Shown here piece after piece: positions 13,580-51,574 of a stretch of DNA of 64,000 nt. The translations under genes and the position numbers were made by a program. The first letter of the stretch is position 1; the number at the start of each line of letters is the position of its first letter. The stretch lies in the NCBI GenBank assembly GCA_948467495.1, contig CAOKEO010000001.1, positions 5,271 to 69,270 of the forward strand. The letters run 5' to 3'. The notes below the pieces were generated by a model. That model ran no database searches. It was not told the DNA's origin and saw only the letters and a list, made by a program, of their open reading frames with translations. Source of the DNA: an uncultured Clostridium sp. (GTDB lineage: Bacteria > Bacillota > Clostridia > TANB77 > CAG-508).

Positions 13580-16412
13580 TTATGATAAATATTTCTTCAA
13601 AAACTTACCAGTATAGCTTCGTTCATTGGTACAGATTTGTTCTGGTGTTCCAACAGCAACTACTTCTCCTCCATTGTCGCCACCCTCTGGACCCAAATCA
13701 ACAATATGGTCACAAGTCTTAATCAAATCCAAATTATGTTCAATCACAATAATCGTATTTCCTGTATCCACTAATCTTTGTAAAATATCCACTAATTTAT
13801 GAACATCTGCAATATGAAGACCTGTTGTTGGTTCATCTAAAATATACAGTGTTTTACCTGTTGCTCTTTTTGACAATTCTGTGGCTAGTTTTACTCTTTG
13901 TGCTTCTCCTCCTGATAATGTAGTGGATGGTTGTCCTAGTTTGATGTAACTAAGACCTACATCATATAAAGTTTGCATTTTTTGCTTAATTTTTGGAATT
14001 TTATCAAAAAATGTTAAAGCTTCTTCTACGGTCATATCTAAAACATCAGCAATAGTTTTACCTTTGTATTTAACTTCTAGCGTTTCACGGTTATAACGTT
14101 TTCCCTTACATACTTCACATGGCACATAAATATCTGGCAAGAAATGCATCTCAATTTTGTGAACTCCATCACCATTACAACTTTCACATCTTCCGCCTGC
14201 TACATTAAAGCTAAATCTTCCTTTTTGGTAGCCTCTCATTTTAGCTTCTTCTGTTTCTGCAAAAATATCACGGATTAAATCAAATACTCCTGTATAGGTT
14301 GCTGGATTAGAACGTGGTGTTCTTCCAATTGGTGATTGGTCAATATTAATGATTTTATCAATATTTTGTAAGCCTTTAACGCCCTTACATTTTCCTGGTT
14401 TTTCATTCGAACCATTTAATTCTTTGGCAACCGTTTTGTATAATACTTCATTTACTAAAGTTGATTTTCCGAGAACCAGAAACACCTGTTACACAATTAA
14501 ATACACCTAATGGAAATTTTACACTAATATTTTTTAAATTGTTTTCACTTGCTTCTTGTATTTCAATTACTTTAGTTTTGGTGTGCTTTCTTCTTTTTTT
14601 CGGTACTGCTATTTGCTTTTTACCACTTAAATATTGTCCTGTAACAGATGCTTCCACCTGTTTTATCTCCTCGGCTGTTCCCTGTGCCATCACTTGTCCA
14701 CCATGGGTTCCAGCACCTGGTCCAATATCAATAATCTGATCTGCTGCATACATGGTGTCTTCATCATGTTCCACCACTAAAAGTGTATTTCCTAAATCTC
14801 TTAACTTTTTAAGAGTAGCTAATAACTTATCATTGTCTCTTTGATGAAGTCCAATACTTGGCTCATCTAAAATATATAATACGCCTGTTAGCCCAGAACC
14901 AATTTGAGTAGCTAAACGAATTCTTTGTGCCTCTCCTCCAGACAAGCTTCCTGCATTTCTAGAAAGAGTTAAGTACTCCAAACCTACATCCATTAAAAAT
15001 TGTAATCTTTGGTCTATTTCTTTTAATATCAGTTCTGATATCATAACCTCTGTTTTGGTTAGGGTAAGTCCATTCAAATATTTCTTAATTTGATTGATTG
15101 GCATATCTGTCAATTCATTGATATTTTTATCTCCTATTTTAATCGATAATATTTCTGGTTTTAGTCTTGCTCCATGGCAAGAGTAACATGGTGAGTTACT
15201 CATATACATTTCGTAAAAATCTCTCATTCCTTGTGACTTGGTTTCATTATGACGTCTATCTAAGGTTGGAATTACGCCTTCAAATGGTGCTTTAAATTTT
15301 CGAACTCCTGCATAAGAAGAATATTCAAAATCAATTTCTTCTTCTCCTGTCCCATATAAAATTTTCTCTAAAAACCATCTTGGTAAATCTTTTATTTTTT
15401 TGTTTTTGATAGGTATATCGTAGTATTTGGCAATGCTTTCAAAATACATTTTTGCCATGGTATCTCCCTTTTTCATAGTACTAGAACCAAATGCCTTTAC
15501 CCCATCATACAAAGTTTTATTCTGATCTGGAATAATTAAATCTTCATCCATTTTCATCAAATAACCAATTCCTGTACAAGTTGGACAAGCTCCAAATGGA
15601 TTGTTAAAAGAAAACATTCTTGGTGTCAACTCTGGAAAACTAAATCCACAGTCTGGGCAAGCATAATTACAGCTATACAAAACTGGTTTTTGTCCTATTA
15701 CATCAATTAAAACCAATTTATCAGCATGTTTTAAAGCAATTTCTACCGATTCAGTTAATCGACTTACCACATCTGGTTTGATGACTAGCCTATCTACAAT
15801 CAATTCTACCTCATGCTTTTTCTTTCGATTCAAACTAATCTCATCTATTCCTAATTCATATACTTCTCCATCAATCCTGGCTCTCACAAATCCATCTTTT
15901 TGGTAGCCCTCCAATTGTTTGGTAAATTCGCCTTTTCTTCCTCTTACAACTGGTGCCAATACCTGAATTTTTGTGCCCTCTGGTAAACACATAATATTAT
16001 CAATAATCTGGTCAATACTTTGCTTTTCTATTTTTTTGTGACAATTCGGACAATAAGGAACTCCAATTCTGGCATATAACAAACGAATGTAGTCATAGAT
16101 TTCTGTTACGGTTCCAACCGTTGAACGTGGGTTTCTAGACGTCGTTTTTTGATCAATCGAAATCGCTGGTGATAAGCCATCAATCCTTTCTACCTCTGGC
16201 TTTTCCATCAATCCTAAAAATTGCCTTGCATAGGAAGACAAACTTTCTACATATCGCCTTTGTCCCTCTGCATATAAAGTATCAAATGCTAGGCTTGATT
16301 TTCCTGATCCAGAAAGTCCTGTAATAACTACTAATTTGTCTCTTGGTATTTCCAAGTTTATATTTTTTAAATTATGCTCTTTTGCTCCTTTTATGGTAAT
16401 TTTATCATTCAT
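13580..16412 (-). CDS. uvrA: Excinuclease ABC subunit A, requiring one +1 shift at CGG 14469-14471.
   Basis: There are two ABC ATPase modules and zinc-finger cysteines. The junction reads VTGVSGS-[C]-GKSTLVNEV, which restores the second Walker A (GSGKST). The start is [10 protein letters not shown], with RBS GGGGGAAGG. Confidence 0.85.
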
Positions 16413-16445
16413 AAAAACCTTCCCCCTGTTTTTCTCTTGGGACAT

Positions 16446-16675
16446 GGGGACATAGATAATGTCCCTAAATACTTAAAACTACTAACTTAATGTATTATCA
16501 TTATTTATGCAACACCGCGTAAGCGACCAAACGAGCGATAGCGAGTGCGATTGGAGCAACCTACCATCTTAAAAATCTGAAGGTTGCGACACACAAGGTG
16601 TAAAAAAATAATAGATAATACATTAAGTTAATGGCATTATTTATGAAAGGAACATTATCTACGTCCCCATATCCC
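16446..16675. repeat. RF-B element, copy 1: ~100-nt GC-rich core (16509-16608) flanked by ~55-bp imperfect inverted repeats.
   Basis: Core: GCAACACCGCGTAAGCGACCAAACGAGCGATAGCGAGTGCGATTGGAGCAACC..AAGGTTGCGACACACAAGGTGTAAAAAAA. Flanks: GGGACATAGATAATGTCCC..AACTTAATGTATTATC and the reverse GATAATACATTAAGTT..CATTATCTACGTCCCC. A second copy is at 58156-58305. Confidence 0.7.
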
Positions 16676-16722
16676 AAATCCTATTATACTATATTTCTTT
16701 TTTAAAAACAAGAGTTTGGTTT

Positions 16723-43738: not shown

Positions 43739-43930
43739 AAAAAGCAAAGTAATCTTAATAGATAAAAAAGGTATTTTCGTTCAATTAATTTTCATAGAAA
43801 TTCTAAATAGATTTTAGGGCACCCTTCCACGTCAAGCGTGAACTCTTTCCCTAAAATCTATTAAAAATTTCTAATTTAATTAATTTCAATTCAAATACCT
43901 TTTTTATCTATTAAGATTACTTTGCTTTTC
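43739..43930. repeat. Nested perfect palindrome: outer 37-bp inverted repeat, inner 12-bp inverted repeat, central CACG..CGTG.
   Basis: AAAAAGCAAAGTAATCTTAATAGATAAAAAAGGTATTT ... AAATACCTTTTTTATCTATTAAGATTACTTTGCTTTT. The inner arms are TAGATTTTAGGG/CCCTAAAATCTA. It lies between convergent genes. Confidence 0.75.
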
Positions 43931-43939
43931 TATATAACT

Positions 43940-44160
43940 TTTCACCAAATATAAAATCCCCCGCCTTAGCCGTCAGCTGCCTTGAATTTTTAAGGACCTG
44001 CTCCTAAAAACAGGTGGGTGCCTACCTAAATATTCCTGGGCTTCTCACTAAGATATGTGAGCTTGCACGCCATATTCAGAGATTTGGCCCCTCTTATCGT
44101 GTGTTGGTTCTAAAAATTCTGCCTATACGCACTACGCAGGGTAAATTTAATATTTAATTA
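43940..44160. other. GC-rich island of ~220 bp in an AT-rich, ORF-free 670-bp gap; candidate structured RNA or mobile-element remnant.
   Basis: Its composition differs sharply from the flanks (CCCCCGCCTTAGCCGTCAGCTGCC..GGTGGGTGCCTACC..). It has no ORF and does not obviously match tmRNA, RNase P, SRP or 6S RNA by eye. Confidence 0.3.
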
Positions 44161-51437: not shown

Positions 51438-51472
51438 CTTTCTTTTATAGAATTTTATTATATTTTTATGAA

Positions 51473-51540
51473 ATAACAAATCGGGGGGACCAGCAAGTTA
51501 CAGTCTGTTATTTTTACAGACTGTAACTTGCTGGGAGTTA
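51473..51540 (+). repeat. RF-A structured repeat, full copy, between fabF and accB.
   Basis: AATAACAAATCGGGGGGACCAGCAAGTTACAGTCTGTTATTTTTACAGACTGTAACTTGCTGGGAGTTA. Confidence 0.8.
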
Positions 51541-51574
51541 TTTCAGAAAAATATAATAAACATTCTTAAAATTA

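Follow-up and report, generated by a model that had tools for sequence, protein, structure and literature searches.

Bacterial MITEs, or miniature inverted-repeat transposable elements, include the Correia elements of Neisseria, RUP of S. pneumoniae, bcr1 of the Bacillus cereus group and the enterobacterial RU/ERIC elements, and conservation in an ordinary MITE lies at its ends. The Foldback (FB) elements and the transposons with long terminal inverted repeats (TIRs) of eukaryotes, such as Galileo, are kilobase-sized and have arms built of tandem subrepeats. The insertion sequences IS1397 and ISKpn1 target the loops of repetitive extragenic palindromic (REP) sequences. Here we describe RF-B, an element present as copies A and B in a 64,000-nucleotide stretch of chromosomal DNA from a low-GC Firmicute, an uncultured Clostridium sp. 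(contig CAOKEO010000001.1, positions 5,271 to 69,270; hereafter the window). RF-B is a previously undescribed and oddly built family within an established class of selfish DNA and does not constitute a novel type of system. We think that it is probably a foldback MITE whose whole hairpin is the transposed unit, a reading to which we assign a probability of roughly 0.6.

Each copy consists of a conserved core enclosed by two inverted arms (Table 1). The original prediction, made from the letters of the window, had described two cores of about 90% identity that are richer in GC than the host, carry no open reading frame (ORF) and lie each between the arms of its own inverted repeat. Both cores are present on the + strand, with a measured identity of 88% (89 of 101 alignment columns), and the other parts of that description were borne out. 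The GC content is 41-47% in the core and 56% in its conserved part, compared with 32% in the window; the arms of copy A are imperfect and about 70 nt long, copy B has a shorter pair, and the ORFs touching the copies are read-ins from neighbouring genes. Differences between the two cores fall nearly all in two hairpin loops; there is also one compensated pair, for which copy A has ACACC/GGTGT and copy B has ACACT/AGTGT. One-nucleotide indels, one in the loop of P2 and another in that of P3, mean that there is no conserved reading frame. The window contains the 20-mer GCGTAAGCGACCAAACGAGC two times, whereas 100 shuffles contain it not once, and the family covariance model, run on the 64 kb with filters off, finds two copies only (114 and 117 bits); the next match, at 15 bits, is a different hairpin element. 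Folding energies of the copy A region are -90 kcal/mol for the + strand and -107 kcal/mol for the - strand, which correspond to z scores against shuffles of -11 and -12.6. The left arm of copy B is without the GTTTCGACTTTTG segment, which is retained in the right arm; the latter also matches the pattern AAGTTTCGACTTTTKGCAAGTG (58299-58320, - strand). The same asymmetric arm pair was found at L015 (L numbers denote loci and contigs other than the window).

RF-B is not private to the window genome. Eight-kb blocks of a one-genome-per-species collection were scanned for exact GCGTAAGCGACCAAACGAGC, which matched at least 116 blocks from at least 51 assemblies of uncultured gut Clostridia. The covariance model detected ten additional diverged copies within the same blocks, and this genome set holds at least 129 RF-B copies in total, with mostly unrelated flanking genes. 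Apart from one labelled Bacilli, the listed assemblies bear the labels uncultured Clostridia, Clostridium, Eubacteriales, Clostridiales or Bacillota, and the listed genome copies come from the guts of human, rabbit, mouse, goat, sheep and chicken. The additional copies in matched blocks suggest a density of about one RF-B copy per 30-70 kb. A second, independent scan of metagenome contigs with the 3' 18-mer block GAGTGCGATTGGAGCAAC gave 87 stretches, 73 of which are family members by the covariance model; these copies derive from gut samples of human, shrew and marmot. BLAST of phage and plasmid collections and a scan of viral contigs returned no meaningful match of the core or of whole elements. 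RF-B is spread through a clade of low-GC uncultured gut Clostridia.

Whole elements measure about 180-350 bp and form hairpins of 60-250 nt. Among the 101 genome-set copies with a locatable 3' end, the arms are 15-93 nt long (median 44), save for five in which the end of the core was misplaced and two that are truncated at the edge of a contig; the median in the independent metagenome subset is 43 nt. Nearly all complete copies that were measured cap a hairpin (arms of 15-98 nt), and none of the copies with placeable ends was found without the flanking repeats on which the original prediction depends. Based on per-position information content, conservation is confined to the core and about 12 nt per side (TTTTTGMAAYACY ... 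RGTRTKAAAAAA), weakly AT-alternating sequence continues to about 22 nt from the core, and the arms beyond are at background. Consensus structure and pair counts were derived from sets of 70 and 67 distinct copies. P1 continues the arms, the GCGTAAGC mini-hairpin is invariant, the P2 hairpin differs in length between copies, and the loop of P3 is variable, at times reaching 100 nt. Three unpaired core segments, GACCAA, GCGAT and CACAA, are nearly invariant in both the genome and the metagenome sets. In the metagenome set, 98.9% of cells are paired, P2 contains G-C in 44 and A-U in 18 distinct sequences, compensatory changes occur in P1, P2 and P3, and the observed covariation score was reached by none of 500 shuffles.

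Some copies depart from this anatomy. Deletion derivatives have lost the sequence between two GCGA repeats of the core (L091 2534-2591, L099 4310-4372, L102 ~3690), and one locus carries a tandem duplication of the core and right arm (L071 1930-2160). In a further core variant, about 55 nt (CAGCTAACRCATACTGCCACT..AACAGTGRACAGCAAAACGA) are inserted after the first mini-hairpin and before P2, and this insertion is shared by two loci (Table 1).

Four terminal families (F1 to F4, Table 1) recur at the ends of RF-B elements, and the same arms of 45-80 nt accompany the core at non-orthologous loci. The arms of copies A and B are mutually unrelated, as had been noted before, but each arm family recurs in other genomes, and the arms are in this respect not locus-specific. 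Those of copy A (TGGGACATGGGGACRTAGATAATGTCCC...AACTTAATGT...) are also found in L003 and L081, two non-orthologous loci with other neighbour genes, and those of copy B (TTYAAGTTTCGAC-TTTTTGCAAGTG..., family F2) at about a dozen further loci in many assemblies. Exact direct repeats of at least 8 nt, located at most 3 nt from the palindrome ends, flank 10 of 96 copies, compared with 0.54 on average, and never more than 3, over 200 trials with permuted flank pairs; duplications occur in several of the arm families. Most are 8-10 nt long and two are of 12 nt (examples are TACTTTTT, AAAATAAC, ACCAAAAAT and CTTTCGTTCG), and several contain G or C, such as CAACAGTGG, CTTTCGTTCG, AAAATAACG and CGACATTTT. 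Some F2 copies have direct repeats of 9-12 bp outside the F2 terminus, and further cases were detected at the second L088 copy and, in the independent metagenome set, at L143, L163 and L210.

Filled and empty orthologous sites were compared for L003 and L005, for L006 and L016 with L019, and for L061, which is filled, with the window at 53.8 kb. The empty sites are short ordinary spacers without a palindrome. Very close relatives provided no precise empty site: all contigs with identical or 90%-cluster neighbour proteins carry both copies, and a metagenome scan with the flanks of the L047 locus gave no match. In one intergenic region, L031 and L083 carry different elements at sites some 120 nt from each other, and L010 and L112 have elements with different duplications in one region, which indicates repeated independent insertions into intergenic regions. 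Together, the duplications, the recurrent arms and the palindrome-free empty sites argue for a non-autonomous DNA transposon moving as a complete foldback.

With its small non-coding and ORF-free sequence, its many dispersed intergenic copies, its TIRs shared within families and its direct target-site duplications of 8-10 bp outside the hairpin, RF-B is MITE-like, as first proposed. The original prediction had offered two origins for the enclosing repeats. One of them, an element that generates inverted target duplications, is unsupported because the duplications observed are direct. The other, insertion into pre-existing palindromes or terminators, fails as a general rule in view of the palindrome-free empty sites and the travelling arms, but may hold in the narrower form of nesting in other foldbacks. 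We rejected a pre-existing terminator as target, the empty sites being palindrome-free and the arms without the layout of a terminator.

Nesting involves a second family of hairpins, RF-A, whose core (AAWTCGGGGGGACCAGCAAG...CTGGGAGTT) forms the apex of AT-rich arms resembling those of RF-B (AAAGGTTAT...TTTTT..GCAAC). At L001 and L049, an RF-B hairpin stands in place of the RF-A apical loop, and these composites are bounded by outer GTTACWATTCAC (GTTAC) termini and 8-bp duplications (TACTACTA, TTTTATAT). At L045, an RF-A motif adjoins an RF-B copy, probably a further nested case. RF-B lies at the centre of a GATTTTGGGG..GG palindrome at L047, and a similar palindrome with only a short loop was found at L048; at L116, F2-type termini form a core-less mini-palindrome of 43 bp. 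In other species, RF-B occupies the place of RF-A in the regions orthologous to 10.3 kb and 39 kb of the window (L088, L004).

These cases bear on a different reading, in which only a core of about 110 nt with a 12-nt imperfect terminal repeat (TTTTTGMAAYAC...GTRTKAAAAAA) would be mobile. It would insert preferentially into the centres or loops of palindromes, mostly those of other foldback MITEs, and the composite would then move as a MITE; this is the idea of palindrome targeting limited to mobile hairpins. The composites at L001 and L049, the adjoining motif at L045, the palindromes at L047 and L048 and the core-less termini at L116 are all in line with it, as are the end of conservation about 12 nt beyond the core and the presence of one core inside at least four unrelated terminal families. 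Targeting of REP loops by elements of the IS1397 type provides a precedent. However, no junction signature or duplication bounds the 110-nt unit, and the neighbouring sequence is inverted, not direct. Core-less long palindromes are rare in the window (one among eight long inverted-repeat pairs), about 25 nt of the inner arm travel with the core within one genome, and we know of no mechanism or enzyme for such homing. We regard this reading as unlikely, although it deserves some weight. A stronger form, in which the core of about 85-110 nt would be an autonomous module that recognises structure, as single-stranded DNA or RNA, and places itself at the tips of other mobile hairpins, seems to us improbable. 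If true, RF-B would be a hyper-parasitic "apex-homing" element carried by different transposon families, and its targeting of DNA, by shape and not by sequence, would be of a new sort.

The conserved fold could also be that of a functional RNA, a multi-copy small RNA or a cis-acting element made from the + strand and kept for the benefit of the host. Its structure would be multi-branched, with a GNRA-type loop and two helices with tandem G.A pairs, and the arms would serve as a processing or stabilising stem. The near-invariant unpaired segments, found in at least 51 assemblies and again in the metagenome set, fit such a molecule, as do the pairing and covariation described above, but covariation in a DNA palindrome cannot separate RNA from DNA pairing. 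The GUAA loop (variant GCAA) and the GA/GA internal loops are favourable on the + strand only; the core alone is just marginally more stable than shuffles (z ~ -2). In many arms, a -10-like TATAAT lies about 12 nt upstream of the core, and 35 of 98 left arms score at least 9/12 compared with about 7 in shuffles, although no consistent -35 or terminator was found. The genome set favoured an RNA in the wobble test (wobble vs A.C, 13:3) and in the orientation relative to flanking genes (49:12), whereas the independent metagenome set gave 11:9 and 13:14, and the arms gave 28:31 in the wobble test. Likewise, the orientation on the C-rich strand changed from 76:19 to 15:16; the bias of the genome set, 36 vs 7 when counted by assembly, is absent in the metagenome set. 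Rfam 15 has no family for RF-B, its only window match being the 6S RNA elsewhere in the window, and in an Rfam search of the locus with E up to 10 a plant microRNA model scored best, at 16.6 bits. Its duplications, its nesting, its deletion derivatives and its fast decay are those of a transposon, and we consider a host-serving RNA doubtful.

An asymmetric conserved segment between inverted repeats is also the layout of an invertible promoter, and cores of opposite orientation occur in the same intergenic region of different species. The arms could then be targets of a recombinase that flips the core or exchanges it between arms. We find this very hard to sustain. The core has one orientation in 17 of 17 contigs of the window strain (L117-L133, with one substitution) and in six contigs of a second strain, for which it was checked by gene spacing or alignment. 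No recombinase is adjacent, the neighbours being uvrA, ABC transporter genes, a DUF368-type gene and a U32 peptidase gene, and the arms differ between copies and are thus incompatible with a single recombinase site. Inversion of the core by recombination between arms was rejected: the opposite-orientation cases (L010/L112 and copy B/L064) differ in their arms or duplications and are therefore separate insertions.

The arms of RF-B combine divergence with complementarity. Arm identity is 0.79 within a copy vs 0.51 between copies overall, and 0.86 vs 0.72 in family F2; within families, a block of 8-10 bp varies between copies and is complementary within each copy. Isolated arm mismatches are of the G.U type on the + strand in 28 cases and on the - strand in 31, with 29 transversions. 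Since there is no strand preference, selection acting on a transcript from one strand is not what keeps the arms paired. Between two strains that are 99.4-99.8% identical, copy A has 8 differences in 240 nt (16437-16677) and the adjoining 280 nt only 2 (10 in 520 nt), and one of these differences in copy A makes an arm an exact match to its partner. Copy B, which has shorter arms, is identical in both strains. Template switching between the arms of inverted repeats homogenises and extends arms and gives changes that look compensatory (PMC8794818, PMC8604942, PMC13100816). Judging from the pattern of differences, it would be the most economical account of the likeness between arms.

As a foldback MITE, RF-B would be transposed as a unit of two long inverted arms with family-specific terminal repeats and a GC-rich core of about 85 nt at the tip. 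RF-B carries no gene, so it would have to be moved by a transposase acting in trans. The direct duplications suggest that this enzyme would make staggered cuts 8-9 bp apart in non-palindromic intergenic DNA. After insertion, the arms would mutate quickly, with the two arms of one copy remaining more alike than arms of different copies, most likely through correction at the DNA level in which one arm would be copied onto the other by replication template switching or hairpin-templated repair, and not through selection on an RNA. The core would be needed in cis for spread; it may be where the mobilising machinery binds or nucleates, or an asymmetric spacer that makes the long palindrome tolerable. 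Alternatively, it could be a module that has repeatedly ended up at the apex of different foldback elements.

Several points weigh against the foldback MITE. No duplication is detectable at either window copy or at most copies; copies without one are presumably old. Neither about 1.5 Mb of locus sequence nor the plasmid and phage collections yielded a transposase or an autonomous element whose ends match. A conserved centre combined with at least four unrelated terminal families is not explained by a single transposase and MITE lineage, and the conservation of the unpaired core segments in at least 51 assemblies exceeds what is expected of passive cargo. The correction between arms is proposed from the pattern of arm differences.

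No transposase adjoins any RF-B copy examined, and neither window copy has a transposase or recombinase gene adjacent to it. Loose matches to the terminal repeats and long inverted-repeat pairs 0.7-3.5 kb apart gave chance matches and one 2.25-kb segment only. This segment (L103 3020-5273) is bounded by inverted repeats of 42 nt and 35 nt and contains no transposase; its genes appear Fic-domain-like and methyltransferase-like, judged by eye from sequence motifs. A derivation from IS200/IS605 as a palindrome-associated transposable element (PATE), or from REP sequences and their associated tyrosine transposases (RAYTs), was rejected on account of the terminal repeats, the direct duplications and the hairpins of 60-250 nt. 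Elements of those kinds lack TIRs and duplications, have subterminal hairpins or short REP units with a conserved head, and insert strand-specifically. No Y1 transposase was seen adjoining RF-B copies, and the orientation bias was not reproduced.

Table 1. Positions of RF-B features and RF-A elements in the window, with core variants of other loci and the recurrent terminal families.
Feature	Position	Strand	Details
Copy A, left arm	16437..16508	.	Inverted-repeat search, arm extension 80/81 nt, fold; modules of arm family F3: outer TTGGGACATGGGGACATAGATAATGTCCC, middle AACTTAATGTATTATC, inner ATTATTTAT
Copy A, conserved RF-B core	16509..16608	+	Covariance-model match 16505-16608, 114 bits, E 4e-33
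Copy A, P1	16512-16516 with 16597-16601		
Copy A, GCGTAAGC mini-hairpin	16517-16524		
Copy A, P2	16531-16536 with 16541-16546		Loop 16537-16540
Copy A, P3	16552-16561 with 16582-16591		Variable loop 16562-16581
Copy A, right arm	16604..16677	.	Imperfect complement of 16437-16508; overlaps core-terminal A-run
Copy B, left arm	58146..58181	.	Arm family F2; within 3' end of ORF 57862-58248
Copy B, conserved RF-B core	58182..58281	+	Covariance-model match 58178-58281, 117 bits, E 5e-34
Copy B, P1	58185-58189 with 58270-58274		
Copy B, 20-mer GCGTAAGCGACCAAACGAGC	58190-58209		
Copy B, right arm	58277..58322	.	Full F2 terminus ...CACTTGCCAAAAGTCGAAACTTAA
RF-A element	10283-10415	+	
RF-A element	39030-39149	-	
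RF-A element	51443-51571	+	
Core variant with ~55-nt insertion	L042 846-1007	-	Two different assemblies with next row
Core variant with ~55-nt insertion	L009 5673-5833	+	
Terminal family F1			GTTACWGKTCAG; recurs at element ends
Terminal family F2			TTYAAGTTTCG; recurs at element ends
Terminal family F3			TGGGACATGGGGAC; recurs at element ends
Terminal family F4			CAATGTTGTCAA; recurs at element ends

Copy A is flanked by an ABC-transporter gene and uvrA. A DUF368-type membrane-protein gene has copy B at its 3' end, and a U32 peptidase gene lies downstream; the stop codon of the ORF ending at 58248 is supplied by the copy B core (58246-58248). Both uvrA (13580-16412, - strand) and the DUF368-type gene (57354-58248, + strand) are split, the former into ORFs of 654 and 301 aa and the latter into ORFs of 164 and 128 aa, the second of which ends inside the copy B core. 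The splits are identical in two strains and are therefore not random assembly errors. Just to the right of copy B is a perfect TTGACA-17-TATAAT promoter sequence (58337-58365, + strand), directed at the 3' end of the U32 peptidase gene, which has the opposite orientation. In other genomes, TTGACA boxes of a similar kind come after the right end in several F2 copies. Downstream of this promoter, about 180 nt with hairpins (58380-58560) have no credible Rfam match and may be a candidate small or antisense RNA.

The window has three RF-A elements (Table 1) and one more long hairpin of the same build, and its RF-A GC-rich core reads AAWTCGGGGGGACCAGCAAG-TTACAGTCTGT..ACAGACTGTAA-CTTGCTGGGAGTT. A palindrome of about 256 bp at 38962-39217 is nested in three layers or more, with GATTTGGGGACAAATAAGG on the outside, AGGGCGAGAAACCTTTTTGGCAATTTT in the middle and AAAGGTTATTATAG... 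on the inside, and its tip carries an RF-A core. A long hairpin at 43740-43929, with arms of 52 and 37 nt and a 30-nt GC-rich apex (CACCCTTCCACGTCAAGCGTGAACTCTTTC), is directly beside the 6S RNA gene (43954-44145, - strand), the sole Rfam match in the window. The only long inverted repeat of the window without a core (61888-61936; 22-nt AT-rich arms and a 5-nt loop) directly follows a gene ending at 61885. The motif of the outer arm in copy A (GGGGACGTAGATAATGCCCC) occurs singly at 53822-53841 on the - strand, in an intergenic region where the related species L061 has a complete RF-B element; it may be a remnant of an F3-type element.

The hairpins of RF-B have practical consequences, as they break short-read assemblies: several contigs of the window organism end inside or at the element (L122, L123, L125, L126, L129, L131 and L133, all from independent short-read assemblies of the window strain). 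They also concentrate mutations locally and can reshape the ends of genes, as copy B does with the stop codon of a gene fragment. RF-B is thereby relevant to the annotation of uncultured gut Clostridia. In addition, it offers a natural data set on how bacteria tolerate and maintain long palindromes, with hundreds of independent hairpins that share a centre and have arms divergent between copies and complementary within each copy. The occurrence of one core in several terminal-repeat families, together with nesting at the apex, is unusual for MITEs and raises a testable question, namely what places the core there and why its sequence is so constant in at least 51 assemblies.

Among described families, IS6/IS26 has a TIR consensus of GGTTCTGTTGCAAA and an 8-bp duplication, and includes clostridial clades with longer transposases (PMC6807381). 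The F1 (GTTACTGTTCAG) and F4 termini share the CTGTT/TGTTG centre with this TIR, and F1 also has a G at position 7 and 8-bp duplications, but neither starts with GG and the resemblance spans 7-9 bases only; it may serve as a lead, and we make no claim of membership. No IS6-type transposase was found in these genomes, although no search was aimed at one. Like the REP-targeting insertion sequences and the bacterial interspersed mosaic elements (BIMEs) of the REP/BIME-RAYT system (PMC2817692), RF-B is mobile DNA tied to extragenic palindromes, and its nesting at the apex resembles the loop-targeted insertion of IS1397 and ISKpn1. Unlike REP/RAYT, it has no gene and no GTAG-type head, its hairpins are far longer than REPs (20-40 nt), direct duplications are present, and empty sites are without palindromes.

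RF-B can be compared with bacterial MITEs, which have been reviewed (PMC3184786, PMC2229807). RF-B and these elements are non-coding, 100-300 bp long, with dispersed intergenic copies, TIRs, short direct duplications, long stem-loops and internal motifs, and both occasionally overlap gene ends, as at the stop codon supplied by copy B. RF-B differs from them in that the centre is conserved rather than the ends, and in that several unrelated terminal families share one core. Its arms are long (to about 95 nt), hypervariable and self-complementary, its duplication is of 8-10 bp instead of TA or TTTAT, and it is without a known partner insertion sequence. In common with FB and Galileo, RF-B is composed nearly entirely of inverted arms around a short middle, and the arms evolve in concert and vary in length; unlike them, it is bacterial, about 180-350 bp in size, and built around a structured, conserved and GC-rich centre.

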